Of a stretch of 64,000 nt of DNA, positions 3,150 to 33,358 are shown piece by piece (positions within the stretch are counted from its first letter, which is position 1; every line of letters starts with the position of its first letter). The DNA is from Trueperaceae bacterium (GTDB lineage Bacteria > Deinococcota > Deinococci > Deinococcales > Trueperaceae): contig OZ243927.1 of assembly GCA_965213925.1 (NCBI GenBank), positions 864,001-928,000 on the forward strand, written 5' to 3'. The notes under the pieces were generated by a model. That model did not search any database. It was given only the letters and a program-made list of their open reading frames with translations, and was not told the origin of the DNA. The position numbers and the translations under genes are program-made.

Positions 3150-3181
3150 TTCTGCGTGAGACGCGCGCGTCTGTTGCAGAA
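3150..3181. repeat. 32-bp candidate recombination site A
   Basis: TTCTGCGTGAGAC-GCGCGC-GTCTGTTGCAGAA, intergenic. Confidence 0.8.
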
Positions 3182-3223
3182 GCCCTGTTAAGTCTCGTCT
3201 ATAGATAGACGCATATAATACAG

Positions 3224-3914
3224 GAGGGTGATCGGGTATTCAGTGAGTTTTAAGGAAGAAAGGGTACTGGTGGGATGTGATAGACTACCAGTACCTGCTA
3301 GAAAGCATACCCGTTGAATTAGATGAAGTCGTTAGCAACATCAAGGTGTCCGAGACCCGAGCCGGTCCCGGTCAACCGCGCAGCTACAGCAATAGCTCGC
3401 TGATTCGCTTTCATGTTTACCGCTTTGCCAAAGGCGGGTGGTCGGTTAGGCAGATGCAGCGTGAACTGAGGCGGCAGCCCGCGCTGCTGTCACTTAGGAC
3501 GCGAACTTCTCAAGCGCTTACCTAAAGCGAGAGGCGTTGCTTTAGCTGACGCTGCTTATGACGCAGCGGCCAACTTCCGCACCGCTCTGGCACGAGGTTA
3601 CCATCTACTCACCTCGACCAACCCACGCCGGGGTGAGACACAAGCAGCACCCAGGCAGCTCAACCAGCAAACTAGGCGACGCCTTGAGATGAAAGCTCTA
3701 CTCAAGAAACGACTCGGCATCGGGCGCGTCTTCAGCGTCTGTAAAGAGATTTTAGGCCTTGCAAAAGTGCGCGTCCAGGGCTTCGCCGCTGTTAAGCGTC
3801 ACGCGCTCGCAGCAGTGACTACCTTTAGTGTCTTAGCTCAAGCGCTTACACAAAGAGGTCGCTCCATGCTCGAGATTGCCCAGGTCGCCGCCTGATGAAT
3901 AACCGATCACCCTC
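3224..3914 (+). mobile_element. Internally deleted IS remnant (DDE transposase fragments 3277..3525 and 3689..3895)
   Basis: 19-bp terminal inverted repeats GAGGGTGATCGGGTATTCA (3224-3242) and TGAATAACCGATCACCCTC (3896-3914), 1 mismatch; transposase-like C-terminus KKRLGIGRVFSVCKEILGLAKVRVQG. Confidence 0.75.
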
Positions 3915-4173
3915 ATCAAAACAAATAGCGTTGCCCTCGCACGGCTCAGCGGCCCGCGCTACACCAAAGTTTCAACCCTCTTCACTCACAACCTGACAAA
4001 ACTGTGAAGCCTCTCCGTTAAGTTGACAGCAGGTTACAGCGACTTCTCCTAACATCACGCCACCCTCTGCGCGCTCCGACATCCGTTTCGCGTGGCTCAC
4101 GTTGTCTCGTTCTTCTACTTGTGTCTCGAGCAGGCCGCTGCCAACCCAAATTCAGCACGGCGGAGGTCAACAT

Positions 4174-5901
4174 ATGCGGCGAGTAGGGGTTCTTATCTGT
4201 TTAGCGCTCTTCTGGGGCGCAGCGGCCCAGGACACGGACGGTGACGAAACGGGCGGCAACGTGACAGGCGGCGCAATGAACTCGGGCGGCGATACCTTTA
4301 CGGGCATCGTCTTTGAAGATACCAACGAGAACGGCGCGCGCGACGAGGGCGAGGCGGGCGTCTCGGGCGTGTCGGTCTCGAATGGCGTCCAGGTCATGCA
4401 GACCGGCGAAGACGGTGCGTACGAGTTGCCCATGCGTGAACGTATGATCGTTACCGTGAGCAAGCCGCAGGGCTACATGGTTCCAGTAGACGACAATAAG
4501 GTGCCACAGTTTTTCTATATCCATCAGCCTGAAGGCTCACCCGAAGTCATCCAGGAGTACCGGGGCTTGGAGCCGACCGGCCCGCTGCCTGAATCCGTGG
4601 ACTTCCCCCTCCTCCAAGCCGACGAGCCTGACGCCTTCCGCTTCGTCGTGCTCGGCGACACACAGGTCACGACCCAGGAAGAGCTGACCTGGATGCGCGA
4701 CACGGCCATCGCGGAACTCGGCAGCAGCGAAGCCCTTTTCGGCGTCGCGGTGGGCGACCTCGTCAACGACCCCTTAGGCCTCTACCCGCGCTACCAAGAG
4801 GTGATGGGCGGGTTGCCGTTTCCGGTCTTCTACCTACCGGGCAACCACGACCTCAACTTCGACTCGCCCGACGACCAATATCACTTGGAAACCTACAAGC
4901 GTTACTTCGGCGCGCCGTACTACTCCTTCGACTACGGACAGATGCACTTCGTGGTGTTCGACAACGTGCGCTACAACGTGGACGAGGGCTTCGAGGGAAC
5001 CTACAACGGGCGCATCAGCGACGAGCAGCTCGAGTGGTTCCGCAACGACCTTCAGTTTGTGGACCCCGATAAGCTCATCGTCTTAGGGATGCACATCGCG
5101 CTCACGAACTACGTGGACCGCGACGCCGAAAAGCACCAGGAGACGAACCGCCAAGAGGTCTACCGCATCTTGGAAGAGGGCGGCTTCGAGAACGTGATTT
5201 CGCTGGCTGGGCACTCCCACACCGTCGAGCGCTTCCGCGAGGGCGAGACGTACGACCCCGGCATGGTGACGAACGACGACGGCGAAGAGGTCGAGTCGTT
5301 CGGCTGGGGTACGGTGCCCTTCCCTCAGTTCGTGGCGGGTGCGGTCTGCGGCTCGTGGTGGAGCGGCACCGAAGACGAGTTCGGCATCCCGACGAGCTAC
5401 CAGCGCTGCGGCGCGCCTAAAGGCTACATGGTCTTCGACGTGGAGGGCAACCAGTTCAGCGAACATTGGAAGGTCTCGGGCTCGGACGACGCCATGCACA
5501 TCAGCTTCGACTTCCCGCAAACCGGCTTCAGCGCAGATGGCGGGACACTCAGCGACATGGGCATCATCACGACGGGCGAGCTAGATAACGTCACCGTCGT
5601 CGCCAACGTCTACGCGGGCAGCCGCGACACGCAAGTCGAGATGAGCATCGGCGGCGAGACAATGGAGATGACCTGGAACCAGGACCAGCGCGACCCGCTC
5701 GCCATCAGTTTCCAGCCGCAGGACATGGACTGGCGCTTGACGACGGCGGGCAAGTCATATCACATCTACACGGCCACGCTGCCCGACAACCTAGAGCCGG
5801 GCGTCCACACCATCACGGTGCGCGCGACCGACCCCTACGGTCAGGAGTTTGTGGGCACGAAGGTCTTCGATGTGTGGGCGGACTCGAGCGCCAGCCGCTA
5901 G
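4174..5901 (+). CDS. Secreted calcineurin-like metallophosphoesterase with accessory N- and C-terminal domains
   Basis: GDTQ, GDLVND, GNHD, GHSH, GAVCGSWW motifs; GGAGG RBS; signal peptide. Confidence 0.85.
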   Translation: MRRVGVLICLALFWGAAAQDTDGDETGGNVTGGAMNSGGDTFTGIVFEDTNENGARDEGEAGVSGVSVSNGVQVMQTGEDGAYELPMRERMIVTVSKPQGYMVPVDDNKVPQFFYIHQPEGSPEVIQEYRGLEPTGPLPESVDFPLLQADEPDAFRFVVLGDTQVTTQEELTWMRDTAIAELGSSEALFGVAVGDLVNDPLGLYPRYQEVMGGLPFPVFYLPGNHDLNFDSPDDQYHLETYKRYFGAPYYSFDYGQMHFVVFDNVRYNVDEGFEGTYNGRISDEQLEWFRNDLQFVDPDKLIVLGMHIALTNYVDRDAEKHQETNRQEVYRILEEGGFENVISLAGHSHTVERFREGETYDPGMVTNDDGEEVESFGWGTVPFPQFVAGAVCGSWWSGTEDEFGIPTSYQRCGAPKGYMVFDVEGNQFSEHWKVSGSDDAMHISFDFPQTGFSADGGTLSDMGIITTGELDNVTVVANVYAGSRDTQVEMSIGGETMEMTWNQDQRDPLAISFQPQDMDWRLTTAGKSYHIYTATLPDNLEPGVHTITVRATDPYGQEFVGTKVFDVWADSSASR

Positions 5902-5914
5902 GTTTTCATGTGTC

Positions 5915-6009
5915 GTAAGGGCGGATTTCAAACCAGTCCCTGCGCTGCACAATCCCTCACCCATATAGCCCGCACCGCTCGGTAGGGGCGCTTCATGAAT
6001 CGCCCCTAC
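5915..6009. repeat. Pair of GTAG-type REP-like hairpins
   Basis: GTAAGGGCGGATTTCAAACCAGTCCCTGC (5915-5943) and GTAGGGGCGCTTCATGAATCGCCCCTAC (5982-6009). Confidence 0.6.
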
Positions 6010-6049
6010 GCCGCACATCTCTTCTATATTTATCTCGAGGTGACTCCCT

Positions 6050-7063
6050 ATGACGTACACGAAATGCTTGCCAATTCTATGTCTTTTCTTCTTCGCTTTC
6101 ACCACCCACGCCCACGACGAACACGGACCTACTCGCGTAGTCGCGCCCGCCTCGGCGGACTACCTACTCTCGCTGCCCTCGAGTTGGTACGACTCGCGCC
6201 GCTTCGACCAGCCCTTGCCCGACGAGGGCGATAAGCTCTACATCGCCGAGACCGAGGTGATGTTCGAGGCGTGGCGGCGCGGCGAGGTGCTGGGGCCGGT
6301 ATTACAGGTGCTGAGTTCGCCTGCTCCTGAAGGGGAGGAAGATGAGGTACTGCGTCAAGGTCTCGGCCTGCCGATAGCGGAGAAGCAAATTAAGCCTCAC
6401 ACCGTGAACGGCTACCCGGCACTGAGCGCTCGCGGCTTCCCCTACCGCGGCGCACCCGAAACCGGCCTCACCGTACTTCTCGCTGGAGGCACGCTCTACC
6501 ACTTCCTCTACGCTGCCGACCGTCCCGCGCACCTTCACGAGGTCGAGGAAATTGTGGATAGCTTTGCGCTCCAAGCTGACGCCGCCGAGCGTGACGAGGT
6601 GCAGATTGCCGCCTCGAGCGACCTATCCGGCCTCATCGGCAAGCCTGCCCCGGACTTCGAAGCAGCAGTCATGGGTACAGACCTCCAAGAGCGCGTGACC
6701 CTGAGCGACCTGCGCGGCAAGACCGTCGTGCTGACCTTCTGGGCGACGATGTGCTTTAGCTGCCAATTAGAACTGCCTATGCTCGCACGCGCCGCCGCCG
6801 AGCGTGGCGACGTGGAGGTCTACGCCATCAACTGGCGCGAGGCCCCCGGCGTCATCCGGCAGTTCACGGACCAGCTCGAGACCTCGCCCACCGTCCTCTT
6901 AGACCGCGCCGGGCTCATTACCGACCGCTACGGCGTGAGCGTCCTACCCGCCACGCTGATTATCGACTCGCAGGGCATTGTGCGGGCTGCGCCGCAGTTC
7001 AAGATGGAGACGACCTTGGAAGAGGTGAAGGGGTGGCTCGAGGTTGCCACGGCGTCCAACTGA
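6050..7063 (+). CDS. Secreted TlpA/ResA-family redoxin with an extra N-terminal domain
   Basis: GKPAPDF...LSDLRGKTVVLTFWATMCFSCQLELP (CxxC); signal peptide. Confidence 0.8.
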   Translation: MTYTKCLPILCLFFFAFTTHAHDEHGPTRVVAPASADYLLSLPSSWYDSRRFDQPLPDEGDKLYIAETEVMFEAWRRGEVLGPVLQVLSSPAPEGEEDEVLRQGLGLPIAEKQIKPHTVNGYPALSARGFPYRGAPETGLTVLLAGGTLYHFLYAADRPAHLHEVEEIVDSFALQADAAERDEVQIAASSDLSGLIGKPAPDFEAAVMGTDLQERVTLSDLRGKTVVLTFWATMCFSCQLELPMLARAAAERGDVEVYAINWREAPGVIRQFTDQLETSPTVLLDRAGLITDRYGVSVLPATLIIDSQGIVRAAPQFKMETTLEEVKGWLEVATASN

Positions 7064-7099
7064 GCTTCAAGTATCGCTCGTAGCGTTCTGTGGCAGACA

Positions 7100-7600
7100 T
7101 TAGATCGGCCCCGGTCCGACCGCGCAGTCGTAGGTTAAAAGCACGCCGCCCTGTTGCACGCCCGTCTCGGCGCCCGCGAAGAGCAGTTTGTTTCCCCAGT
7201 AGGACTTTTGGAACGCCGCACGACCGTACACAGGGTGTCGAGTGAGCGCCGCGCGGTCCGCAGGCGCGCTGCTCTGTTCGTCCCGCCACCACATATAGTC
7301 GAAGTAGACGAGATGGTCATGCGGCGGGCTGCCGTAGAGCCTGGTCAGCTGGGCGAGGACGGCTTCTTCGCGCTGGCCGGGCTCACCTGAACTTTGGGAC
7401 GACGCGAAGAATCCCTTGATAGCGCCGACCCGCGCGCCGTCTGGGCTAACGTCGTGCAGCTCGCCCAACGGACCCCTATAGCTCACAGCGAAGCCGGGCA
7501 ACCCCTCGTCGCGCCAGAAGGGTCTCTCGAAAACGACGACGGCTTTCGCCGAGCCGCCCATCCAGGTCGGCGTCGCGCGCTGAGCGCTCTGCAGCGCGTC
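7100..7600 (-). pseudogene. Flavin monoamine oxidase C-terminal fragment
   Basis: WMGGSAKAVVVFERPFWRDEGL...GPLGELHD...LLFAGAET; FAD-binding N-terminus missing; boundaries approximate. Confidence 0.7.
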
Positions 7601-7769
7601 AGGGAGATAGAGTTAGAGTTGCCCTTTACGGTCTCGAGTATCTCCGTCCCCTAACGCGCCTCTTCTTGGTGCATCCGGTTAATCTCGCGCACGCTTCGGA
7701 AGTGGCTTTCCGTATTGCCAGCGCAAACCACTGAGAAAACACCTTGCAGCGGACTTAAAAGATGCACCA

Positions 7770-7801
7770 TTCTGCAGGAGACGCGCGCGTTCGCCGCAGA
7801 G
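7770..7801. repeat. 32-bp candidate recombination site B
   Basis: TTCTGCAGGAGAC-GCGCGC-GTTCGCCGCAGAG. Confidence 0.8.
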
Positions 7802-7863
7802 GACCTCGGTTAGAAGGAGGTCTCGAAATACATGACAAAAGCTCCACTCGGGTTGCCGTAACA

Positions 7864-7881
7864 CATTGATGTGCATCAATG
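7864..7881. promoter_or_regulatory. Probable ArsR operator
   Basis: Palindrome CATTGATG-TG-CATCAATG just upstream of arsR. Confidence 0.6.
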
Positions 7882-7895
7882 GATATACTGCGTTC

Positions 7896-8219
7896 ATGAA
7901 CCACCAGGAGATGGTTAACAAGCTCAAGGCGCTCGCCGATCCGAGCCGCCTCGCCATTCTCGAGTTTCTGCTCCACCCTATCCAGAGCTGCTGTAGCCGC
8001 GAAGAGGGCATCTGCGCCTGCGACCTGGAAGACTTTCTCGGTCTCACCCAGCCGACGGTGAGCCACCACATGAAGCTGCTCATTCAAGCAGGCTTCATCA
8101 CGGCAGAGAAGCGCGGGCGCTGGGTGTACTACGACCTGGTTCCTGAAACTTTCGAAGCGGTGCGGGCTGCGCTGGCAGCGTTTGCAGCGTGCCAAGTGAC
8201 AACTAAGGCGGACGTGTAG
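7896..8219 (+). CDS. arsR: ArsR/SmtB metalloregulator
   Basis: KALADPSRLAIL, CC...ICACDL, TQPTVSHHMKLL, EKRGRWVYY. Confidence 0.9.
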   Translation: MNHQEMVNKLKALADPSRLAILEFLLHPIQSCCSREEGICACDLEDFLGLTQPTVSHHMKLLIQAGFITAEKRGRWVYYDLVPETFEAVRAALAAFAACQVTTKADV

Positions 8220-8680
8220 TGCGCCTACTCGTACTTTGCACCCACAACTCCGCCCGCTCGCAAATGGCGGAAGGGTGGCTGAGGTACCACGCGCGAGAAG
8301 CCGGGTTGAACGCCGAGGTCCTTTCCGCTGGCACCGAGCAAACGAGGGTCAAGCCGGACGCGGTCACCGTCATGCGGGAGGTGGGCATCGACGTTTCAGG
8401 TCACACCTCTAAAACGCTCTTCGACCTCCCCGACCCCTGGACCTTCGACGTAGTTGTCACAGTTTGCGACAGCGCGAACGAGGCGTGTCCCAGCTATCCC
8501 GCCGAAACGACGCGCCTTCATGTCGCCTTCCCCGACCCCTCCGATCAACCGCTTGAGAGGTGGCGTGAGGTTAGAGACCTGCTTGGCGAAATGAGCGAGC
8601 AGCTTATCCGAGTTTTGAAAAGAGGCGAGGCACCGACTGAGGAACTTATCCGCCCGAAAACGCTCAACACGCTTCCATGA
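8219..8680 (+). CDS. arsC: Arsenate reductase, LMW-PTP fold
   Basis: LCTHNSARSQMAEG, SAGTE, VVTVCD, FPDP; located in an arsR operon. Confidence 0.85.
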   Translation: MRLLVLCTHNSARSQMAEGWLRYHAREAGLNAEVLSAGTEQTRVKPDAVTVMREVGIDVSGHTSKTLFDLPDPWTFDVVVTVCDSANEACPSYPAETTRLHVAFPDPSDQPLERWREVRDLLGEMSEQLIRVLKRGEAPTEELIRPKTLNTLP

Positions 8681-9393
8681 GAATCTGGCTCGCTGAGTTC
8701 ATCGGCACCTTCGCGTTGGTATTCGTCGGTATTGGCACGATTGCTTCAGGGATCAGTCCAGTTGGCGTCGCGCTCGCCTTCGGCTTCGTCGTAGCAGTGA
8801 TGATCTCGGCGGTCGGTCCCATCTCGGCGGCGCATTTCAACCCGGCGGTCACAGTTGGCTTTTTCGTCATGCGGCGTATCACCTTGCCGCAGCTCTTCCT
8901 CTACTGGAGCGCTGAACTCTCCGGTGCGGTCATTGCCATGCTGACGCTAAACGCTTGGTACGGCGAGGAGCGCCTTAGTTCGGTCCGTTTCGGCACGACC
9001 CAACTTGCTCCTACTGTCACACCGTGGATCGGTATCGGCGTCGAGGCGGTCCTGACCTTCTTTTTGATGTTTGTCATCGCCACCATCGTTATTCAAAAAC
9101 ACGCGCTCGATGGTCTCTACATCGGGCTCACTGTAGCGTTAGGGGCTCTGGCAGGCGGAGCGTTGACGGGGGCGTCGATGAACCCGGCACGCAGCTTCGG
9201 ACCCGCACTCATTGGCAACGTCTGGACCTTGCACTGGGTCTACTGGCTCGGACCACTGCTCGGTGCGGTCGCCGCGTCGCTCACGGCGCAGTATCTCTGG
9301 CAGGCGGACGACGACCCGTTTAAGCAGGGCGAGCCCGAGCGAAGTGCGCAGGCGCGTAAGCATATCCTAGAGAAAGGAGCCAAGGAGGGATGA
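8677..9393 (+). CDS. MIP-family aquaporin/aquaglyceroporin (probable arsenite channel)
   Basis: AEFIGTF, HFNPAVT, SMNPARSFGPA; translationally coupled to arsC. Confidence 0.9.
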   Translation: MRIWLAEFIGTFALVFVGIGTIASGISPVGVALAFGFVVAVMISAVGPISAAHFNPAVTVGFFVMRRITLPQLFLYWSAELSGAVIAMLTLNAWYGEERLSSVRFGTTQLAPTVTPWIGIGVEAVLTFFLMFVIATIVIQKHALDGLYIGLTVALGALAGGALTGASMNPARSFGPALIGNVWTLHWVYWLGPLLGAVAASLTAQYLWQADDDPFKQGEPERSAQARKHILEKGAKEG

Positions 9394-10760
9394 AGCTACT
9401 CATCATCGGCGGCAGCGACGCGGGCATCAGCGCCGCGCTCCGTGCCCAAGAGGTCAACCCGGGCGCGGAGGTGACGGTCGCGTTGGCGGACTACTACCCT
9501 AACTACAGCATCTGCGGCATCCCCTTTTGGCTCGGCGGCGAGGTCGCGGACTATCACGACCTGGCACACCGGACGAAAGAGGACATCGAGGCGAAGGGAA
9601 TTGAGCTGTTGGTAGGGCACACTGCCACCTATGTTTACTCCGAAGCCCATCAAGTTGAAGTGCGCACGGATGAAGAGATCAAAACGCTCGAGTACGACGC
9701 GCTCATTCTCGGTACAGGTGCGAAGCCGATGGAACCGCCCATTAGAGGGTTAGATTTGCCGGGTGTCTACCTCTTGAGAACAATGGGGGACAGCTTCAAG
9801 ATTCATGCGCACTTGATGGAGAAGCAACCTAAACGCGCTGTGATCGTCGGCGCGGGTTACATCGGGCTGGAGATGGCGGAGGCGTTTCGGCACCGGAGGT
9901 TAGAAACGAGCTTGGTCGAGCTGACCAAAAGTGTGATGCCGAGTATCGACGCGGAGCTTGGGAAGGTGCTGGAGCAGACCCTTACTGAAAATGGTGTTGA
10001 GGTGAGCATTAACACAGCGGTCGAGCGGATCGAGCAGGCGGGTGATGCTCTTTTAGTGATAGGTTCGGACGGTTTGCGGCTCGAGACAGATTTGGTTGTG
10101 GTCGCTACGGGCGTCGTTCCAAATACGACCTTAGCTGAAACAGCGGGCGTCTTACTTGGCGTCAGTAACGCCCTCAATGTCAACGAGAAGATGAAGACGA
10201 ACGTAGAGGGCATCTACGCGGCGGGCGACTGCGTGCAGACCTATCACCGCTTATTTGAGCGCTACACCTACACACCTCTTGGCACAACGGCGCATAAGCA
10301 GGGCTATGTAGCCGGGGAGAATGCAGTAGGAGGCGACGCCACCTTTGCGGGCTCGCTCGGAACGCAAACCGTCAAGCTCTTTGACCTTGTGGTCGCCCGC
10401 ACAGGATTGCGCGATGCCGAAGCGAGAGAAGCAGGCTTCGACCCGCTCACCGTCAGCCTCACCGCAGACGACCACAAAGCCTACTACCCTGATGCGACGC
10501 CCTTGCACCTTCGTTTAACCGGAGACCGGACGAGCGGTACCCTCTTAGGTCTTCAGATGGTTGGGCACCGCTCGGCGGAGGTGAGTAAGCGCGTGGATAT
10601 AGTCGCCACCGCGCTTTACCACGGGATGACCGTGAAGTGCCTTCTAGACCTCGACCTCTCCTATGCACCACCACTAAGCAGCCCCTGGGACCCCGTGCAG
10701 ATAATAGCGCGGGCGTGGGAACGCGCCGCGGCGAAGGGACAAGTGGTGGTAGTCACCTAA
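9390..10760 (+). CDS. CoA-disulfide reductase-like FAD-dependent pyridine nucleotide-disulfide oxidoreductase
   Basis: IIGGSDAG, NYSICGIP, GAGYIGLE, YAAGDC, DLSYAPP. Confidence 0.85.
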   Translation: MKLLIIGGSDAGISAALRAQEVNPGAEVTVALADYYPNYSICGIPFWLGGEVADYHDLAHRTKEDIEAKGIELLVGHTATYVYSEAHQVEVRTDEEIKTLEYDALILGTGAKPMEPPIRGLDLPGVYLLRTMGDSFKIHAHLMEKQPKRAVIVGAGYIGLEMAEAFRHRRLETSLVELTKSVMPSIDAELGKVLEQTLTENGVEVSINTAVERIEQAGDALLVIGSDGLRLETDLVVVATGVVPNTTLAETAGVLLGVSNALNVNEKMKTNVEGIYAAGDCVQTYHRLFERYTYTPLGTTAHKQGYVAGENAVGGDATFAGSLGTQTVKLFDLVVARTGLRDAEAREAGFDPLTVSLTADDHKAYYPDATPLHLRLTGDRTSGTLLGLQMVGHRSAEVSKRVDIVATALYHGMTVKCLLDLDLSYAPPLSSPWDPVQIIARAWERAAAKGQVVVVT

Positions 10761-21417: not shown

Positions 21418-21438
21418 GAAATCAGCAAGTATAACTCT

Positions 21439-24799: not shown

Positions 24800-25780
24800 G
24801 GAACAGATGGAACTCGACGCCCGCGACGTGTGGCGCGCGCCAACTATCAAGAGGTGAAAGAGGGGCGCGGCACCGAGGCGGGCGGCGTGTTCCTAGACAT
24901 TTCACATAGGGACGCCGACTTCAAGAGGGGAGCGCCTCGGCACCGAGGCGGGTTCAAAGACGGCGTGTTCCTAGACATTTCACATAGGGACGCCGACTTT
25001 ATCCGGGAGCGCCTCCCTAAGATCGTTCGCCAGTTCAAAGAGCAGGGCGTGGACATCACCGCTGAGCCGATGGAGGTCGCCCCGACCGCGCACTACGCGA
25101 TGGGCGGCATCAAGATAGATTTCGGGACGGGCGAGACGGACGTGCCGGGGCTCTTCGCCTGCGGCGAGGCCACCTCGGGGGTGCATGGCGCGAACCGCTT
25201 AGGGGGTAACTCGCTCTGCGAGACGGTGGTCTTCGGGAAGGTTGTCGGCGCACATGTGGCGGGCGAGATAGGCGCGCTGCCCGAGCCGAACGTTGACGAG
25301 GACGAGGTGGACGCCGAACTCGCTCGGCTCCGCGACCTGAGCGAGGCAGATGGAGATACAGAACCCGACGCGCTGATAGACGAACTCGGCAACCTGCTCT
25401 GGGACCGCGCGGGGATCGTCCGCAACCAGGTGGGGCTCGAGCAAGGGCTAGAGGAGCTGGCTACGTTGCGCGAACGCGCTCAAAACCTCCGCGTCGAAGG
25501 GGGCGTGACGGGTCACGACTTCGAGTTCGCCAACAACTTACAGTTCATGCTGCTCGCAGCCGAAGCTATCCTGCGCGGCGCGCTCATGCGGGACGAGTCG
25601 CGCGGCGCGCACCACCGCGACGACGCCCCGGAGGAGAAAGAGGAGTGGCAACAGAACATCCTCTACCGCAAAGAAGGCGGGCAGATGGCGCTGACGACCG
25701 AGGCGGTCGGTGAAGTACCCGAAGGGATTCAGCACGCCATAGAGGAGGGGCACACGCTCGAGTATCATCACCTGGAGTAG
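24800..25780 (+). pseudogene. 5'-truncated SdhA/FrdA/NadB-family flavoprotein with an internal duplication
   Basis: ELDARDV (frameshifted), [48 protein letters not shown] present twice. Confidence 0.75.
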
Positions 25781-28485
25781 TCGTTCCCCTCAACCCTCTC
25801 TTTCAGCGCCGCCACCCTCTCTTTCAGCGCTGCCGCGACCCGCGCGTGAGGTCGTTCGTCCGCTTCGCCAACGTCCGGGTTTTCTGCTAGGTCTTCTAGG
25901 TCTCCCGCCCTCTGCGGCTCTCCGAAAACGACTGTGACGCGGGCTGGTCGGGGCAGGGAACCCGGCGGCATCGCGTGTTGTGTACCGGCGATGTAGACGG
26001 GCACGGCGGGCACGTGCACGTCAGCGTGAGTCAGGAGCAGGCCGATGCCGGGGCGGAAGCGCTGCAGCTCGCCGGTCGGCGAGCGCTGCCCCTCGGGGAA
26101 CCAGACGAGAGAGTGGCCGCGCCTGAGCGCCGCCGCCCCGACCGCCAAGCTCGCCGTCGCCGCGCGGTCGCTGATCGGCACCGCTCGGGCTAAGCGCGTG
26201 AAACCTCGGTTGATGAGGTTGTGCGTGATGACCTGCTCCGAGCCCACCCAGAAGGTGTTGCCAAGTCTGCTTGCGCCGAGCGCCGCCGCCAGAACGAAGG
26301 GGTCTAAATAGCTCGCGTGGTTGGGCGTTAAGATAACGGGACCCTCGTCAGGCACGTGCTCGAGCCCCACCACCTCGAGCCTGAAAAAGGTGCGCATGAG
26401 CCCACCGTTGAGTGCCCAAAGAGGCCGCGCCAGCGCCCGCTGCCACGCGCTCAGCGGCGTGAGCCGGGCGCGCTGTTCATCGCTCAGAGATGCTTCGGGG
26501 TCGTCCAGAGGGTCAGCCCTTTCGCCCCCGGTTTCGCCCTCGGCCCGCTCCCCCACCTCGCGGAGCAGGTCGCGCACCGTGTCGAGCCGCCCGGCGGTCT
26601 CTTCGTCTAGCTCGACCCCGGCCCGCTCGCTGATCTCCAAGGTGAGGTTGACCCACTCGAGCGAATCGATGCCCAGCTCGAGCTGCAAGTCCGTTTCCGG
26701 CGCGAGGCGCTGCCCTTCGTAGCGCGACGCTAAAAAGTCCCAGACTGAGTGCGCCGCCCGGTTGTCCAGGAGCCGCTGGTCCTCTTCCGCCATCTCCCCT
26801 ATAGGGACCGGCTGAGCCTCTTCCTCACCGCCCGCCTGCACCTCGTCAAAGCGTTCCTCCAACAGGTGACGGCGCAGCTTGCCGAGCCGCGTACGGGGCA
26901 GCGGCTTCGCTGAGAGCGCGAAGTCGGCGAGGCGGGCGTAGGAGGGCAGTTCTTTCGACCGCTCCTTGATCGCCTCGGAGACCGCCTGCTCGGTCCAGGC
27001 GGTAGTCGAGAGGTGGCTGCTTTCGGCCCTCTGCCGCGCTTCGCCCCGCTCGGGCACGATCACGCCGACCAGGTCGCGCCCCTTTTTAAGCACGCCGACC
27101 TCCCGGATGACGGGGCTCTCTTCATACGCCGCCTCGACCCGGTCCGGCTGGAGGTTTTCGCCCCCTCGGGTGACGATTAGCGTCGAGACGCGCCCCGTGA
27201 TGAAGAGGTGCTCGTCCTCGAAATAGCCTAAGTCGCCCGTGCGAAACCAACCCGCCCCTAGCACCTCTTCGGTCTTGTCGGGGAGGTTGCGGTAGCCCGA
27301 GAAGACGCTGGGACCTCGCGCTAAAACCTCGCCCTCCCCCTCGCGCTCCCCGGACGCCTTCGCCTCGTCGAGGCGCAGCTCCACGCTCTCGACCGGCCTA
27401 CCGACGCTACCCAACCTCAGGTCGTCCGGCGCTTTGATGGTCAAGAGCGGCGAGGTCTCGGTGAGGCCGTAGCCGATGGCGAGGGGCCAGCCGAGCCCCT
27501 CGAGCTGCCAGGCCAACTCGGGGTCTAGTGCCGAGCCCCCCGAGGCGAGCAGGCGCACCTCGGGACCGAAGCGTGCGTGTAGGGGCGCGAGCAGGCGTTT
27601 GCCGAGCTGCCAACCGAAGCGGCGGCGCAAGGAGGTACTGAGCGTCAACGCCCCGCGCAGCAGCGGCGCGCTCGGCCAGCCTTGCGCGTCAATCCGCGAA
27701 CGAATCCCCTCGAAGAGCGCTTCGTAGAGGCGTGGCACGCCGAGGATGGCGCTCACCTCACCCTCGTTTAAGGCGCGTACCAGTTCGGGCCCGGTCCGCG
27801 CGGCGGGCAGTACGATGGGCGCGCCGACCGCTAGCGGTAAGAGCATCCCGATGACAAAGGGATAGACGTGGTGGAGCGGCAGGGGGAGGAGCAGAGTGTC
27901 GTCTGAGCGAAACAGCTCTGTCTCTATGATCGTCTCGAGCTGACTGGCGAGGTTACGGTGGCTGAGCGGCACGCCTTTGGGCGCACCTGTCGTGCCGGAG
28001 GTGTAAAAGAGGGCGGCAGTGTCCTCGGGCTCCGGTTTGGCTGCGTCGCCCGGCTCGCCTAATACGCGCCGCCAGCTACGCGCGTCGTCTTCAGTGTCGA
28101 AGAGGATGGGTTGAACCTCTACATCTTGAAGCCGCTCCAGCTCGTCGGACGTGGTGAAAACGAGGTGCGCACCGCTGTCTTTAAGCACGTGCCCGAGTTC
28201 TTCCCCCGACAGTTGCGCGTCAATCGGCACGACCACCGCGCCGGAGCGCAAGACTGCTAAGCAGGCGGCGATCCAAAGCGGCGTGTTGGCGGCGTAGAGT
28301 GCGACCGCATCACCCCGCTCGACCCCCTGCGCCCGGAGTCCACCGGAGAGCTGCGCGGCGGTGTCGGCTAGCTCTCCGTACGACCAGCGCTCGACCTCGT
28401 CTTTCCGAAAAGCCAAAAGCGCCGTGCGTTCCTGACGCTCGTGGAGCGACGCGATAAGTGACGGTATAGCGTGAACCTGCGACAT
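25768..28485 (-). CDS. AMP-binding acyl-CoA synthetase fused to an acyl carrier domain and a PlsC-type acyltransferase
   Basis: YTSGTTGAPKG, GYGLTE, TGDLG, LGIDSL, NHASYLD, FPEG. Confidence 0.85.
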   Translation of the reverse strand: MSQVHAIPSLIASLHERQERTALLAFRKDEVERWSYGELADTAAQLSGGLRAQGVERGDAVALYAANTPLWIAACLAVLRSGAVVVPIDAQLSGEELGHVLKDSGAHLVFTTSDELERLQDVEVQPILFDTEDDARSWRRVLGEPGDAAKPEPEDTAALFYTSGTTGAPKGVPLSHRNLASQLETIIETELFRSDDTLLLPLPLHHVYPFVIGMLLPLAVGAPIVLPAARTGPELVRALNEGEVSAILGVPRLYEALFEGIRSRIDAQGWPSAPLLRGALTLSTSLRRRFGWQLGKRLLAPLHARFGPEVRLLASGGSALDPELAWQLEGLGWPLAIGYGLTETSPLLTIKAPDDLRLGSVGRPVESVELRLDEAKASGEREGEGEVLARGPSVFSGYRNLPDKTEEVLGAGWFRTGDLGYFEDEHLFITGRVSTLIVTRGGENLQPDRVEAAYEESPVIREVGVLKKGRDLVGVIVPERGEARQRAESSHLSTTAWTEQAVSEAIKERSKELPSYARLADFALSAKPLPRTRLGKLRRHLLEERFDEVQAGGEEEAQPVPIGEMAEEDQRLLDNRAAHSVWDFLASRYEGQRLAPETDLQLELGIDSLEWVNLTLEISERAGVELDEETAGRLDTVRDLLREVGERAEGETGGERADPLDDPEASLSDEQRARLTPLSAWQRALARPLWALNGGLMRTFFRLEVVGLEHVPDEGPVILTPNHASYLDPFVLAAALGASRLGNTFWVGSEQVITHNLINRGFTRLARAVPISDRAATASLAVGAAALRRGHSLVWFPEGQRSPTGELQRFRPGIGLLLTHADVHVPAVPVYIAGTQHAMPPGSLPRPARVTVVFGEPQRAGDLEDLAENPDVGEADERPHARVAAALKERVAALKERVEGNDYSR

Positions 28486-28680
28486 CAATTCCCCCTAGCA
28501 GCGTGGTGACGAAAGCTACGGTTCAGTTTAGCAGGTGGTCGGCTAAACGGTTCTCCCCCGAGTTAAGAGTAGACGGGCGTACTTTCGCGCCTATCCCGTT
28601 CCTCTACGCTGGACGGGTCGAAGGGGCAGGGTGCATCTCGGTATCTCACTCCTGACAACTTCAACCTAGGGGGAGTAGCG

Positions 28681-29469
28681 ATGAGGATAGGAGTAAGCAT
28701 TGTAACGTTGGCGGCGCTTTTGCCGCTCGGCTTGGCGCAGGAAACAGGCGGGTCACAGACGGGCGGCTCACAGGAGGTCTACAACGTCTCCACCGTGTCG
28801 GAGACCTTCGGGCTCTTCACGATGGGGCTGCAAAGGGTCTCAGCGCAGGCCGCCGTGCAGAACATCCAAGGCTGGCAGGCGCGTTTAGAGGCCACGGAAG
28901 ACGAGCAGTTCGTGAGCTTGTCCGACGAGCTAGGGAGCCTCGCCGAGGCGCTGCAAACCTCCTCGCCCGACACTGCCGCCATCGCTGAACAGCTCGTCGG
29001 TCTGGGCGAGCGGACGGATGAAATCGCTACGAATGTGGACGACGAAGACCTCGCCAGGCGTCTCTCGACGCTCAGCTACGTCCTTCAAGAGGTCGGACAG
29101 ACGGTCCAGCAGCAGCCGCAAGTTGACCTCTCTAACCTCATCCCGGTAGTGCCGCCCGTGCTCGGTCGGACGGCCCAGTTTCTGCAGGGCGACCTGAATA
29201 ACGCCTCCTTAGCGGCGGCGCTCCTTAATATCGAGGCGTGGCAGGGGCGCATCCTGACTAACATCGAGGGCGACGCGGCGGAGCAGCTCGTGGAAGACTT
29301 GGAGGAGTTGCAAAACACCTTGCAGATGGAGCAGCCCGACCAGGCGCAGTTGGGTGAGACTTTCAGCTCACTCGCCGAAAGCACACGCGGGGTAGCCGAA
29401 GAGGTGGACCCGGCTTTGCAGAACGCCTTGGAGGGCTTTGCCGGGGTGCTCGAGTCGGTGGGGCAGTAG
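28681..29469 (+). CDS. Secreted acidic helical protein with two internal repeats
   Basis: Signal peptide; AAVQNIQGWQ and AALLNIEAWQ repeats; GGGAG RBS. Confidence 0.7.
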   Translation: MRIGVSIVTLAALLPLGLAQETGGSQTGGSQEVYNVSTVSETFGLFTMGLQRVSAQAAVQNIQGWQARLEATEDEQFVSLSDELGSLAEALQTSSPDTAAIAEQLVGLGERTDEIATNVDDEDLARRLSTLSYVLQEVGQTVQQQPQVDLSNLIPVVPPVLGRTAQFLQGDLNNASLAAALLNIEAWQGRILTNIEGDAAEQLVEDLEELQNTLQMEQPDQAQLGETFSSLAESTRGVAEEVDPALQNALEGFAGVLESVGQ

Positions 29470-29660
29470 CTCACCGGTCAGCGATTGCTGTCAGGTTCAG
29501 GGGGAGGCGCACCTCCCCCTGAACTATTGTTGACCCTGCTGTTAACTCCGTCAAAGACAGCCGTAGTCTTCGAACAGGGCTGCGTATCAAACTGTAGTGG
29601 GTGCGTTCGTAGCACCGTCTCGAGCGCAATCTGCGCCGCTCAATCTCGAAAGCAGCGTTT

Positions 29661-29777
29661 ATGTCACCTCTTAAATTACTCGTCCCTTTAGACGGCACTG
29701 ACTTCAGCCAACGCATCATCCCTCACCTCACGCGCCTTTTTCGCCCTGAGGATATCCAGGTGCACCTCCTCCCCTGA
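29661..29777 (+). pseudogene. Universal stress protein N-terminal fragment
   Basis: MSPLKLLVPLDGTDFSQRIIPHLTRLF...VHLLP* resembles the Usp N-terminal motif. Confidence 0.5.
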
Positions 29778-30007
29778 TCCAACCGCTTAAAGGCGAAGTC
29801 TGACCACGTCGTGCTCAACGCCGCCTAGCTTGTCGCGCTCCTAGAGCCGATGCACACTAGCACGCGGACCTGCTGGGACAGGTGCCGCTTTCAGAACGGA
29901 GAAGTCAAATTCTCCTATAACGATCGCCGTATCTGCGTACGTTCTGCTTCACGCGTGAACGCGTTTTAGGCCGAAATGCGTGGTCAATGACTGGCCTCCG
30001 CCTCCTT

Positions 30008-30517
30008 TCAAGACTTGCGCGTGGCGGCTCTTCGTATGTACACAGTCCACCCTCGCCGCCGGACCGGAACACCGGGCAGGCTGGGGATCAGCCGATCAGC
30101 GACGACACCGGTGACGACCGCGTAAACGGCTTTGTGCAGCAGGTCGATCGCCTGCTCGTCCAGCGGCCACGTCCACGGCGGTGCGACGACGCCCGTGGCG
30201 TTTTCCAGGGTTTGGTCGTTGAGCAAGCGCAGATTCAGAAACAGGAACGACCCGACCGGGCCGCGCAGCCCCCGCTCAGCCATCAGCCCGCGCGCCGCAC
30301 CCAGAAGGATGCCCTGACCCCAGTGCATGCCTCGGTTCAGCCATAGGCGTTCCTCGTCGGGCTTCTGTGCGAGCCCTAACAGCCGTTCTAGCGTGTGGGC
30401 TGGCACGTACGAATCCGGTCGGCGGGTGATCGCCTGCTCGAGCTTCTCAGCGGCGGTCATCGCCGCGACCCCGACCAGACCCGCCGCTAGTCCGCGCAGC
30501 GCCGCGTTCTTCATCAC
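30008..30517 (-). CDS. Hypothetical membrane protein
   Basis: GLAAGLVGVAAMT...PDSYVPAHTL...DLLHKAVYA; GGAGG RBS. Confidence 0.7.
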   Translation of the reverse strand: MMKNAALRGLAAGLVGVAAMTAAEKLEQAITRRPDSYVPAHTLERLLGLAQKPDEERLWLNRGMHWGQGILLGAARGLMAERGLRGPVGSFLFLNLRLLNDQTLENATGVVAPPWTWPLDEQAIDLLHKAVYAVVTGVVADRLIPSLPGVPVRRRGWTVYIRRAATRKS

Positions 30518-30875
30518 CTTACCTCCGCTCTACCGGTGTAGTAGTAGAGGTCCTTTTTCCGTATCGCCAGGTTGATATACAAAGTCAAAGCCGCCTCCCC
30601 CTTCTTTCGCTCATGATACGCAAGGGGCGTTCTCTGGACCTTGCGCCACAACCCATAGTCCGGCGGTTCAATCAATGGTGCAGAGAGTCCGAAGCAAGGG
30701 GATTGGTCCCGTTGGACACAATTAGAAGACATAGACATGGTTGGGGAGAGGATGGGGAGAAGGCAACCGCGTGCGACATCGGCAAGCGTCCTTTCCACGG
30801 TCAGTTCGCCGACATCTTGTCCGTGTTCAAAATCTTTAGGCGTGGGAACGGACCAAAGGCTGCCTAGGCTCTAGC

Positions 30876-30907
30876 GCAGGAGTTTAACGCGCGCGTTCGC
30901 TGCACAG
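30876..30907. repeat. Candidate recombination site K (left arm degenerate)
   Basis: GCAGGAGTTTAAC-GCGCGC-GTTCGCTGCACAG. Confidence 0.65.
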
Positions 30908-31133
30908 GCCATTAGCAACCTCGCGAGAGGTATTGGAAGGGCTAAATGGACGAGCAAGGTGACGGCGAGCTTGCATGGAGCTTAGATACCTCTGCTTCTC
31001 GCTTAGCGACGGGCTGTGAATCAGGAGTAACAACTGAAGCTAAAAACACGGCTCCCACGAAAACCGCCCAGCGCATCGCCTAAATTGTGACACACCCCCA
31101 ACGGCTTACCGCCTCCACCTGAAAAAGTAAGGC

Positions 31134-32390
31134 GTGCTCAGGTCATCTCGCTCAGAGCCTCGCTGGGCAGCCCTGCTGCCCCTGCTACACTGCACAGCCC
31201 TAGCGCTTTCTATCCTTGCGGGTTGTAGTCCGGCGGCTACGCTTGAGCCGACGACACTTACGCAGCCCCTCCAAAACGTGCGGGGCAGGCCGATAGATCG
31301 GCTCGTTGCTCCTAGCGCCCTGCCGAGCGCGCGGCTTCTGAATCCCGAGGTCATCCTCTCGGGGCGCGGTGGTGCGCTGCTCGTCTCAAACGACCCGGAG
31401 TACCTCGCCGAGCCTGCCGCGCTGCCCCGTGCGCTCTACCGGGACGAGGTATCGGGCAGCTTCCGCGTCTTTTACCACCACACCAACCATACGAGGACAG
31501 ACCTCACCTTCGCTACCGCTGTCACTAACACGCACACCAGGCCGGTGCTGCTCTTTGGGCGAGGCTCAGGTCAGGGCACCAACCTCTATCCCGACATAGC
31601 AGGCCAAGTGGCCCTTAACGGCTACCTAAGGACGCGCTACCAAACAGCCCGCCTCGCCAGACTGGCTCCTGGCGAAAGCATATTCGTCACCCCCCACACC
31701 GCCGGGCCAAACGACACGGCGAGTGCCTTAGAGGAGTTTATCGCCCTCACGCCGTCCTCGGGAAGAGCTGCGCACGCGAACCGGTCCACCTTCTCAGCGC
31801 GCTTCTCGCCAGCTACCGTTACGCTCACCGTTCTGGCCTATAGAGGGGCCGCGCCGCGAGCGCCGCAGTCGCTCTCCGTCCTACCCGGCAGCCCCTTAGA
31901 GCGAGTTGACAAGACGCCCTATTATCTCCTGAAGCGGGGGACGTTCCCGTTCTTTGACCGCTACGCCGAGGTCGCCCTTTCGCCCGACACTGCCACCAAG
32001 TTGGTCGTGGACTCCGCCGTCTTTGGCCCCTTCTCCCGGGCTATACGGGGCGAATATCTTTTGGGGAGGGACGCGGTGAGCGGCGAATGGGGCTACAACA
32101 ACGGCAACTACGGGGTACTCTATAATTTCCGGCTCCGCGCCCGAAACGACGCCCTGTTGGGCTTGTCCTACGCCTTGCTAATGCAACCTTCCGGCGGGTT
32201 CGGGCATTACGCGGTGCAAACCCAGGGCGACGTCGTGACCTCCGCGTTTATCTCCTACAAAAACGCCTGGTGGTTCTACCGGGCACTCATTTTGGGACCT
32301 GGAGGCAGTCTAACGCTCCGCGCCGGCCTCACGGGTGGCTCGTTTGGGCCGCAGAAGTTCTTTTTCGTACCCTATAGGCGCTTTGAGTGA
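31134..32390 (+). CDS. Putative lipoprotein of unknown function
   Basis: Lipobox LAGC; LLVSNDPE, LYRD, RVFYHH, GNYGVLY motifs. Confidence 0.65.
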   Translation: MLRSSRSEPRWAALLPLLHCTALALSILAGCSPAATLEPTTLTQPLQNVRGRPIDRLVAPSALPSARLLNPEVILSGRGGALLVSNDPEYLAEPAALPRALYRDEVSGSFRVFYHHTNHTRTDLTFATAVTNTHTRPVLLFGRGSGQGTNLYPDIAGQVALNGYLRTRYQTARLARLAPGESIFVTPHTAGPNDTASALEEFIALTPSSGRAAHANRSTFSARFSPATVTLTVLAYRGAAPRAPQSLSVLPGSPLERVDKTPYYLLKRGTFPFFDRYAEVALSPDTATKLVVDSAVFGPFSRAIRGEYLLGRDAVSGEWGYNNGNYGVLYNFRLRARNDALLGLSYALLMQPSGGFGHYAVQTQGDVVTSAFISYKNAWWFYRALILGPGGSLTLRAGLTGGSFGPQKFFFVPYRRFE

Positions 32391-32482
32391 GCGGCTACAC
32401 TAGCGGCTGGCGAGATGGGCTGTGAATACAGTGAGCCGACCTGAGGGCAGTGCAACAGAAAACCCTCTACACGCATAGAGAT

Positions 32483-32514
32483 TTACGCATTAGACGCGCG
32501 CATCACACGCACGA
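32483..32514. repeat. 32-bp candidate recombination site L
   Basis: TTACGCATTAGAC-GCGCGC-ATCACACGCACGA (its reverse complement shares the left arm of site H). Confidence 0.7.
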
Positions 32515-32581
32515 AGTCTATGCAAATCTCCGCCCGAACTCTGCCCCGGTACTTAGCTGAATACCGATTCCAGGCGGTGCC

Positions 32582-33298
32582 TCACTCAAGCTGACTCAGC
32601 GTCATGACGTTCCTGATCTTTTCCAGGTGCGCCGCCTCGACCTCCAGCCAGCTTTCCTCACGTTCTCCGCCCTCGCGCAGCTCCGCCGCAGCGAAGCCCG
32701 AGGGCTTTAGGTCGTCGATAAAAATGATGAGGAGCTCTTTGCGGCGGGCCGAGTCCGGGATATGAACGAGCCGCGCGTAGAAATACTCGTCAGGGTAGCT
32801 GTAGCCTTTGCCAGCAAGGAACTTGCGCACGAGGTAGCCGTCCGTTCCTGGTGAGCCAAGCCGCCAGAACCTAACGTCAATGCCTGCTGCTGTGTCCGTA
32901 TAGAAGTTGAGGCCGTCTATTTCGACTCGAAGCGGAGAGTCAGTGTAATCATAGGCGTAGTCGTTGCTAGGCAAAAAGCCTTCAAACTGCAGCCAGAAAA
33001 GGCTTTTCAAACTTCCGTCCGGATGCTCCTCGACGAAGAAATGCTGTTCAACATCAGCGGTGCCGTAGAGTTCGAACGTTTGACCGCCGATGTACTCGTA
33101 GTCTTCGTCAAACATCATGTTCATGGCGGGGTCGGCTCGCGAGGTAAGGGTACCGGCTGACACAGATTTTTCTAATTCGGCGAATTCAGGTGATGTCGTC
33201 AACCTACCGGGGTCTGTAAAGTAGAAGTAGATAGCGGCAGCAGCCACAGTGATGAGGGCGAGTCCGGCGGCGATCAGGATAATCCTCTTCATAAGCAC
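32582..33298 (-). CDS. Hypothetical membrane-anchored protein (single-gene cassette)
   Basis: N-terminal TM helix; bounded by sites L and M. Confidence 0.7.
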   Translation of the reverse strand: MLMKRIILIAAGLALITVAAAAIYFYFTDPGRLTTSPEFAELEKSVSAGTLTSRADPAMNMMFDEDYEYIGGQTFELYGTADVEQHFFVEEHPDGSLKSLFWLQFEGFLPSNDYAYDYTDSPLRVEIDGLNFYTDTAAGIDVRFWRLGSPGTDGYLVRKFLAGKGYSYPDEYFYARLVHIPDSARRKELLIIFIDDLKPSGFAAAELREGGEREESWLEVEAAHLEKIRNVMTLSQLE

Positions 33299-33326
33299 AT
33301 TTACTATAAAGCCTTCGCCTATTCCT

Positions 33327-33358
33327 CAAGGACACAGTTGCGCGCGTTCGCCGCACAA
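33327..33358. repeat. Candidate recombination site M (left arm degenerate)
   Basis: CAAGGACACAGTT-GCGCGC-GTTCGCCGCACAA. Confidence 0.7.

Follow-up and report, generated by a model that had tools for sequence, protein, structure and literature searches.

The stretch of DNA analyzed here (64,000 nt from a Trueperaceae bacterium, positions 864,001 to 928,000 of contig OZ243927.1; hereafter, the window) contains, between positions 3150 and 33358, a row of twelve short inverted repeats that separate sets of genes, one of which includes a gene for a tyrosine recombinase of the Xer group. Each repeat, or site, consists of a 13-nt arm, the hexanucleotide GCGCGC and a second 13-nt arm, and all twelve start exactly at the positions given in the original prediction, in which the gene sets were interpreted as modules exchanged at these sites. 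Comparison with related genomes supports this interpretation. As judged from aligned sequences, the sites are real, clustered and intergenic, their arms assort independently, and the modules recur next to varied neighbors, in changed order and orientation, with breaks in homology at the core. The region is probably an array of mobile gene modules on the chromosome, in which double-stranded sites for site-specific recombination link one module to the next, and a dedicated Xer-like recombinase encoded within the array would act on these sites.

The sites and their arms

The sites stand out clearly from the background of the window. Of the 12 sites, 8 match an idealized pattern (TTCTGC-N7-GCGCGC-N7-GCAGAA) when three mismatches are tolerated, against a mean of 0.12 matches in 100 dinucleotide-preserving shuffles, none of which reaches 8. 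A weight matrix built from the 12 sites and run over the whole window and 30 shuffled windows assigns them scores of 25.8-42.1 bits, compared with 18.7 bits for the largest maximum of the shuffles and 8.6-8.9 bits for the best unrelated positions of the window (20522, 52016, and 54347). When each site is left out of the matrix in turn, the scores are 16.7-39.6 bits, and 11 of the 12 sites remain above all shuffle maxima, the exception being the site at 33327 (16.7 bits). The matrix finds no site between 33.4 and 64 kb, in agreement with the earlier claim that the core region beyond 38.9 kb lacks them. Conservation is limited to the 32 bp, the 40-nt flanks failing to align in the alignment of the 12 sites; in the sites at 30876 and 33327, the match to the consensus is restricted to the core and the right arm. 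Ten of the 12 sites are located outside mechanically called open reading frames (ORFs) of at least 100 amino acids (aa), and the other two overlap ORFs without a Pfam match. At the fifth site, there are three arms (17725-17767), possibly left behind by an aberrant exchange. Searched with Rfam models and for tRNA genes, the whole window yields no match, so that neither the sites nor the leader of the integrase gene belong to a curated RNA family, and no tRNA is present in the window as an integration target.

The symmetry of the sites can be examined in a larger set of 49, which comprises the 12 sites of the window and 37 sites from related genomes (see below) and provides 98 half-sites. The half-site consensus, from the outside inwards, is TTSTGCRNSARAY, with G in position 5 of 97 and C in position 6 of 92 of the 98 half-sites, and the core is GCGCGC in 45 of the 49 sites. 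ORFs of at least 100 aa make up 80-86% of the DNA, and 44 of the 49 sites are outside such ORFs. The two arms of the same site agree at 7.92 of the 13 symmetric positions and randomly re-paired arms at 7.86 (standard deviation 0.21), with 40% of 3000 shuffles reaching the observed value; the same result, namely no covariation, is obtained when the comparison is confined to the variable positions. Without covariation, the arms of a site have the behavior of half-sites for a protein, not of a hairpin, and the symmetry of a site is that of two independent copies of one half-site. Such independence is what a dimeric DNA-binding protein would require and also what would be expected to result from reassortment of arms by crossover in the core.

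The assertion in the original prediction that the sites are not attC-like holds up, given that conservation extends over only 32 bp with a core of invariant sequence and that the arms do not covary. An attC/integron reading was rejected because of these arms together with the unconserved flanks and the absence of an IntI signature. Repeats of the CRISPR type, processed by the product of the nearby cas6e gene (37.0-37.9 kb, with a mini-array of three repeats), were rejected as well: the mini-array repeats are 29 nt long and differ in sequence, and the 32-bp sites are separated by kilobases.

Distribution of the sites and boundaries of the modules

A strict site pattern, which catches 5 of the 12 sites of the window, was run against 185,579 species-representative genomes (596 Gb) and detected 18 loci, 16 of which come from four metagenome-assembled Trueperaceae records. 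The remaining two loci, from unrelated phyla, are one match each on contigs from Kiritimatiellia and Acidobacteriaceae, and by our estimate, this is about the chance expectation for a pattern of ~38 bits in 596 Gb. The four Trueperaceae records represent genomes other than that of the window, whose site spacings match none of them. These relatives were re-scanned with the matrix in the DNA within 10 kb on either side of the strict matches. On CBDBZX010000008.1, a contig of 783 kb, the matrix identifies 13 sites at 27-56 kb, 14 at 91-124 kb and three near 736-741 kb, that is, at least 27 sites within 27-124 kb, where the stretch from 66 to 87 kb falls outside the scanned DNA; eight of the nine strict matches on this contig are inside 27-120 kb. 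The six sites of the complete 4.5-Mb chromosome OZ243956.1 are distributed over three places, at 2.008-2.015 Mb, at 3.003 Mb, and at 4.053-4.055 Mb, with five strict matches in three places, whereas OZ243913.1 has two sites 4 kb apart and CBDCDJ010000007.1 has a single one. Thus, in the genomes scanned, the sites are rare, clustered and restricted to one lineage, which is the opposite of the genome-wide dispersal typical of repetitive extragenic palindromes (REPs); it was such dispersal that the original prediction had named as telling against it.

In PLSDB, a 44-nt query spanning the seventh site yields only chance-level matches (E = 8), and the closest relatives of the integrase are at most 44% identical and reside on Bacillus-type plasmids; accordingly, these searches provide no evidence for a plasmid-borne system. 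A conserved chromosomal position of the array was considered and rejected: a single flanking gene of the window (60877-63249) has a homolog near the site of CBDCDJ010000007.1, but the intervening genes differ, so that there is no synteny.

The window and the related loci were compared with each other using BLASTN, and the junctions were then read base by base. Ends of shared modules map to the GCGCGC core in these genomes too, so that a second ground for refutation named in the original prediction is not borne out either. Module A (32494-33347 in the window, with one 238-aa ORF) is 93.7% identical to positions 14975-15828 of a locus on CBDBZX010000008.1 (L007). At the left end of this module, homology begins 2 nt before the core, the flanks further to the left are unrelated, and the left arms differ in 5 of the 13 positions. 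At the right end, the degenerate left arm of the site is identical in the two genomes, and identity stops 2 nt past the core, with unrelated right arms and flanks beyond. In other words, the inner arms go along with the module, whereas the outer arms differ between the genomes. Module B (12763-14152 in the window) is represented by two copies on CBDBZX010000008.1 that are 99.9% identical over 1108 bp. At one end, these copies stay homologous up to and including the final base of the core; at the opposite end, where only the first copy has a site, homology extends 15 nt past that site. Between these copies and the window, homology starts at the core or 5 nt before it. Module C, which consists of an ArsR-like gene and an ORF, without a transposase, is present at 55.4 kb and at 735 kb of the same contig, 680 kb apart, with 100% identity over 1068 bp. 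Its ends are located 6 nt to the right of one core and 2 nt to the left of the other, the remainder of the latter site being lost in one copy. For the duplicates of modules B and C on this contig, three of the four homology ends are inside sites.

Altogether, nine pairwise comparisons inside arrays provide 18 homology ends, 9 of which are inside a 32-bp site; for the five comparisons of the cassette type, this is the case for 8 of the 10 ends, and five ends are within 2 nt of the core. Considering that the sites account for ~1.3% of the array, this enrichment is far above chance. The order and orientation of the modules differ as well. In the window, modules B and A are co-oriented and 18 kb apart, with eight sites between them, whereas in L007 a distance of 2.8 kb separates them and their orientations are opposite, in line with the earlier suggestion that a palindromic core would allow both orientations.

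The resident recombinase, its leader and the cargo

In the recombinase ORF (19816-20682), Pfam identifies only a SAM-like N-terminal domain (PF13495/PF02899) and a Phage_integrase domain (PF00589). The best NCBIfam models are XerC (207.1 bits, cut-off 335.15), XerD (200.5 bits, cut-off 329.6), and archaeal XerA (197.1 bits, cut-off 220); since all these scores are below the respective cut-offs, the protein is a paralog within the Xer group, neither an ortholog of the dimer-resolution recombinases nor an IntI. The integron integrase models score far below their cut-offs (TIGR02249, 112 bits against 265 and split in two stretches; PRK15417, 65 bits against 435), and the alignment with IntI4 (2a3v) covers only residues 203-273, which agrees with the prior description of the enzyme as not an obvious IntI. 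Six catalytic residues (the R, K, HxxR, H, and Y motifs) align with those of XerD (1a0p) and of the XerC-like protein 4a8e; the motifs aligned to XerD are ATGCRVSE, GKGNKERE, HVLRHT, LGH, and TTQLY, and the aligned residues presumably have the same roles as in XerD. The database homologs include ~40 proteins with 71-91% identity, mostly of 296 aa, and a second tier with 52-61% identity that includes proteins from Alicyclobacillus and Sulfobacillus. The 296-aa homologs begin eight codons upstream of the TTG at 19816, that is, at the position of the ATG at 19792 in the window.

Recombinase genes are located next to sites in another genome as well. A TBLASTN search of the DNA of the related loci detects two homologs, with 88.5% and 87.2% aa identity, in both multi-site clusters of OZ243956.1. 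In all three recombinase copies with readable DNA, a site is located ~95 bp upstream of the start codon; in one of the related loci (L006), this site is degenerate. About 29 bases between the site and the start are invariant in the three copies, whereas the coding DNA is only 77-80% identical. In the window, this leader can fold into a hairpin (ΔG -20.7 kcal/mol, z = -3.81; Table 1), which probably gates the expression of the integrase, either by sequestration of the ribosome-binding site or by termination of read-through from the neighboring module. The partners of the recombinase within its module vary, with a DUF2281-PIN pair in the window, a RES-Xre pair in L006, and a YhcG-like nuclease in another related locus (L016), where a RES-domain gene is found just beyond the site at 7857. 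The resident recombinase is putatively assigned to the sites by its co-location with them.

The distances between consecutive sites in the window are 4620, 4993, 1358, 3615, 1958, 1692, 746, 1134, 7610, 1607, and 844 bp. The modules consist of one to six genes on both strands, and many include their own regulators of the ArsR, MarR, TetR, or other helix-turn-helix (HTH) families. A Pfam scan of 59 ORFs in positions 1-45.8 kb of the window bears out the module contents predicted from the translations, including the ars genes, the dhaA-epimerase-SDR-tetR set, marR, vapBC, HNH, and RES-Xre (Table 1). The arrays of the relatives carry similar cargo, namely TetR, MarR, ArsR, and LysR regulators accompanied by enzymes or transporters, and in addition, PhoD and other phosphatases, ABC and MFS transporters, and RES-Xre pairs.

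Table 1. Sites, genes and modules of the array, with transposase genes of related arrays; positions are in the window unless a locus is named
Feature	Position	Strand	Description
Site 1	3150..3181		full 13-6-13 site, near-perfect palindrome, 42.1 bits
Site 2	7770..7801		full site, 38.6 bits
Site 3	12763..12794		full site; left boundary of module B; homology with CBDBZX010000008.1 starts at or just before the core
Site 4	14121..14152		full site; right boundary of module B
Site 5	17736..17767 (17725..17767 with extra arm)		an extra complete left arm (17725-17737) abuts the site
Site 6	19694..19725		integrase-proximal; 66 nt before the conserved hairpin, 98 nt before the ATG
Site 7	21386..21417		full site, 41.3 bits
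Site 8	22132..22163		full site, 40.0 bits
Site 9	23266..23297		full site, right arm weaker
Site 10	30876..30907		core and right arm match the consensus; outer half of left arm degenerate; 28.9 bits (+), 8.3 bits (-)
Site 11	32483..32514		left boundary of module A; homology with L007 starts 2 nt before the core
Site 12	33327..33358		right boundary of module A; degenerate left arm identical in the other genome; homology stops 2 nt past the core
Leader hairpin	19757..19788	+	CCUCCG pairs with CGGAGG (Shine-Dalgarno-like), followed by a U-run and the ATG
Xer-like tyrosine recombinase gene	19792..20685	+	ATG at 19792; TAA at 19801-19803 (codon 4); frame reopens at TTG 19816 (288 aa)
DUF2281 antitoxin-like gene and PIN (VapC-like) toxin gene	20698..21364	+	in the inter-site module of the integrase; Pfam
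Inter-site modules (11)	3182..33326	both	mostly self-contained gene sets, several with their own regulator
Module			two small ORFs, metallophosphatase, redoxin, one more ORF (Pfam)
Module			ArsR, low-molecular-weight-phosphatase-type ArsC, MIP channel, pyridine-nucleotide disulphide oxidoreductase, choice-of-anchor I protein (Pfam)
Module B	12763-14152		HTH regulator and ORF (Pfam)
Module			α/β-hydrolase, epimerase, SDR, TetR (Pfam)
Module			MarR, ORF, CAAX protease (Pfam)
Module			recombinase, DUF2281, PIN (Pfam)
Module			HNH and ORF (Pfam)
Module			truncated RES toxin and Xre antitoxin (Pfam)
Module of 7.6 kb			rhodanese, metallo-β-lactamase-fold protein, SdhA-like flavoprotein fragment, 906-aa acyl-AMP ligase/acyltransferase (Pfam)
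Two single-gene modules			function unknown (Pfam)
Insertion sequence (IS) transposase genes	L002 7902-8639; L014 1108-2042; L004 7778-8857 and 10652-11475; L018 16618-18239		in related arrays

Some of the cargo genes of the window are incomplete. The RES toxin ORF (22217-22540) matches only positions 47-157 of the 157-position profile and hence is truncated at the N-terminus, and the Xre-type antitoxin (22675-23148) looks complete; RES-Xre pairs are found beside sites again in three related loci. The ORF at 24830-25780, inside the 7.6-kb module, corresponds to the C-terminal half of an SdhA/FrdA-type flavoprotein and contains a duplicated peptide near its start; given an identity of just 35% with the intact sdhA (41689-43428), it appears to be a fragment of a different paralog. 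The cargo is rich in phosphatases and phosphodiesterases, with PhoD, GDPD, and choice-of-anchor I proteins in positions 1-12635 of the window, where two metallophosphatase genes (4302-4974 and 995-329) are paralogs with 68% nucleotide identity, and with PhoD (twice), Exo_endo_phos, and Phosphodiest proteins in the related loci L014, L018, L006, and L004. This composition suggests selection for phosphorus scavenging. One module of L007 (3856-4812) encodes a protein of the APH(6)/hydroxyurea-kinase family, and accordingly, the cargo can include homologs of antibiotic-modifying enzymes. Transposase genes of several types (IS240-type, IS630-type, DDE_Tnp_1, and rve) are found within and at the edges of related arrays (Table 1), which indicates that transposition, too, reshapes the arrays.

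Directly to the right of the last site, there are two adjacent ORFs with WD40 repeats (746 and 298 aa, minus strand, 33455-36859) that overlap at 35674-35695 and may be one large gene split by a frameshift. Farther to the right, cas6e (CasE/Cse3; 37055-37723) is followed by three 29-nt CRISPR-like repeats (~37731-37880), and a gene for a TniQ-domain protein (38049-38726) lies on the strand opposite to that of cas6e, with no other cas or tns genes nearby. The segment 36879-38726 looks like a degraded remnant of a type I-E CRISPR-Cas system or a Tn7-like element at the right flank of the array. The next ORF of note (39228-39908, minus strand) encodes a Dam-family adenine methyltransferase, for which the Pfam match is limited to the first two-thirds of the profile, and runs into a 33-bp tandem repeat (4.5 copies, 39232-39380).

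Proposed mechanism, alternative explanations and comparison with known systems

Under the proposed mechanism, the recombinase would bind the two inverted 13-nt arms of a site, two sites would synapse, and strands would be exchanged within or at the edges of the 6-bp GCGCGC; a crossover in the core would leave each module with the inner arm of both flanking sites. For two sites on one molecule, the outcome would be either deletion, which would release a circle with one hybrid site, or inversion of the segment; because the core is self-complementary and the arms are near-symmetric, the sites could synapse in either alignment and thus produce either outcome. The circle could re-enter at any site and in either orientation, and the toxin-antitoxin modules might stabilize the array. 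Such a mechanism would explain the independent arms, the breakpoints at the core, the presence of identical modules in several contexts and the mixed gene orientation. We infer from the comparisons the identity of the catalyst, the cleavage positions flanking the 6-bp core, the circular intermediates and the stabilization of the array by toxin-antitoxin modules.

Several observations weigh against this scenario. The support for it is entirely comparative, with no recombination product, circle or junction seen, and comes from four metagenome-assembled relatives and the flanks within 10 kb of their strict matches. Half of the homology ends (9 of 18) are outside sites, namely both ends of the match between choice-of-anchor genes, all but one of the six ends in the three matches of integrase genes, and the site-less end of the second copy of module B, which is counted in two comparisons; hence not all of the rearrangement is site-mediated, and other processes reshape the region too. 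Furthermore, breakpoints by necessity fall at the longest stretch that two sites share, such that a crossover in the core is indistinguishable from one in the 2-3 consensus bases that flank it. No recombinase gene was detected in the scanned parts of CBDBZX010000008.1 or within 10 kb of the sites of OZ243913.1 and CBDCDJ010000007.1 and of the single site of OZ243956.1 at 3.0 Mb. The recombinase gene of the window has a TAA at codon 4, where the homologs have a glutamine codon, so it is either inactivated or expressed from the TTG at 19816 without the first eight residues. Given this stop codon, the array may be quiescent unless translation restarts at the TTG or a second copy of the gene exists elsewhere. 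Finally, in the homolog P0017, encoded on the contig that has the largest array, similarity is lost ahead of the catalytic tyrosine, and the C-terminal region with this residue is missing, a truncation that may be real or an assembly error.

Some of these observations would be accommodated if the arrays were dif-module-like elements recombined by the housekeeping Xer proteins of the host, as proposed for the pdif modules of Acinetobacter, with the resident gene being cargo or a dimer-resolution gene. The resident enzyme is indeed closest to XerC, XerD, and XerA, the 10 kb around several clusters of sites contain no recombinase gene, and the arrays exist regardless of the early stop in the window copy and the truncation of the copy from the largest-array contig. 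Nevertheless, we consider this explanation unlikely, in view of the upstream site at a conserved distance in three of the three readable recombinase copies and the location of both OZ243956.1 copies in its two multi-site clusters. Moreover, the 13-6-13 layout with an invariant GC core differs from the 11-6-11 layout with a variable center described for pdif in sections of PMC6449649; the searched sections of PMC9764985 give no dif sequence for Deinococcus.

The sites are also short, intergenic and palindromic as are REPs or miniature inverted-repeat transposable elements (MITEs), and any exchange between repeats, be it homologous or microhomology-mediated and without a site-specific enzyme, would map to their shared center. 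This possibility is quite improbable considering the lack of covariation between the arms, the few, clustered copies (five strict matches in three places on a 4.5-Mb chromosome), the absence of a Y1/RAYT transposase among the 59 ORFs scanned with Pfam in positions 1-45.8 kb of the window, and the preservation of the exact 32-bp architecture at every junction. In addition, the identity common to two sites spans only ~6-14 bp, which is below the usual requirement for RecA-dependent exchange. That the palindromes are found between transcription units in every gene orientation could further suggest a regulatory or insulating element, for example an operator bound by a dimeric regulator or a terminator working in both directions, that takes no part in recombination. 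However, this would leave unexplained the homology breaks at the core and the segregation of the arms with the modules; there is no T-run after the palindrome, a terminator scan of 19.0-22.5 kb, which includes three sites, was negative, the arms do not covary, and the regulators encoded in the modules belong to several different families. An exclusively regulatory function therefore appears very improbable.

Returning to the array of mobile modules, we lean toward a broader view, namely that Trueperaceae possess a previously undescribed platform for gene capture, a double-stranded, lox-type counterpart of the integron in which a hairpin-gated Xer-like recombinase would excise, invert and re-insert regulated operons, with arrays of up to ~100 kb and modules that pass between species. 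If so, the cassette-array strategy would have been invented independently from Xer stock, cassette platforms would have arisen more than once, could carry entire regulated operons rather than single promoterless genes and would operate in Deinococcota. The recombinase and its site would form a natural pair of minimal size, and an enzyme this compact with a 32-bp site is a possible orthogonal tool. The system also bears on the evolution of integron integrases from Xer-like ancestors, as treated in part of PMC4792948. Full-text literature searches, which do not extend to subscription journals and supplements, found no description of such arrays in Trueperaceae or other Deinococcota, nor of Xer-like cassette arrays with GC-palindromic sites, and the sections of the tyrosine recombinase classification in PMC8138268 that link Xer-related subgroups to mobile elements mention no system of this kind. 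An integron-like arrangement based on simple lox/dif-type sites thus seems not to have been described before.

Recombinase-maintained cassette arrays are known essentially from integrons, and modules bounded by Xer sites from Acinetobacter plasmids. As in integrons, a tyrosine recombinase is tied here to an array of exchangeable cassettes split by a repeated recombination site, toxin-antitoxin cassettes are present, and a given cassette (module A, B, or C) recurs in more than one setting, delimited by the site. The array of one relative appears to reach ~100 kb, a size comparable to that of large chromosomal integrons. In contrast, each site is a double-stranded inverted repeat of 32 bp whose GCGCGC core is invariant, unlike attC, a long imperfect palindrome that retains its structure more than its sequence and is a structured element of 57-141 nt recombined as a folded single strand (see part of PMC3458562). 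Further differences are that the enzyme, a protein of 288-296 aa, has no match of the IntI type, that the modules have multiple genes in both orientations with their own regulators whereas integron cassettes mostly are single, promoterless, co-oriented ORFs transcribed from one shared promoter, and that the recombinase is located inside the array as a module and not at one end beside a cassette promoter. Among the integron-defining features compared, the only one found here is the occurrence of the same cassette in different contexts.

The pdif modules are similar in that self-contained adaptive modules are inserted between simple arm-spacer-arm sites of the Xer type, and the recombinases belong to the same broad Xer group. 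According to sections of PMC6449649, pdif modules encode metal resistance, transporters, oxidative stress proteins, and toxin-antitoxin systems in different contexts, and their sites are asymmetric 28-bp XerC/XerD sites (11-6-11) with a variable center that mimic the host dif and depend on the host XerC/XerD. Their mobility is debated, as part of PMC11705084 reports that plasmid cointegrates, but not excision, were observed for the sites of Acinetobacter plasmids. The arrays analyzed here differ by the near-symmetric 13-6-13 sites with an invariant palindromic core, the chromosomal location, and the putatively dedicated Xer-like paralog inside the array.

Two inverted protein-binding arms around a short crossover region are the common layout of Cre/loxP, FLP/FRT, and Xer/dif; the 13-nt arms resemble those of loxP and FRT, and the 6-bp center resembles that of dif. 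In those systems, recombination takes place at one or two sites and serves to resolve dimers, to amplify plasmids or to integrate DNA, and the spacers of loxP, FRT, and dif are asymmetric, whereas here dozens of sites partition a cargo region, and the palindromic core gives no directionality. REPs and the related bacterial interspersed mosaic elements (BIMEs) are different in kind, given the clustering of the sites in the relatives scanned, their independent arms and the lack of a Y1 transposase gene in the window ORFs. In shufflons (Rci/sfx), one tyrosine recombinase acts on many clustered short sites and inverts segments of a single gene, which varies the encoded protein; the units separated by the sites described here, in contrast, are complete, unrelated operons that are also present at other loci and in other genomes.

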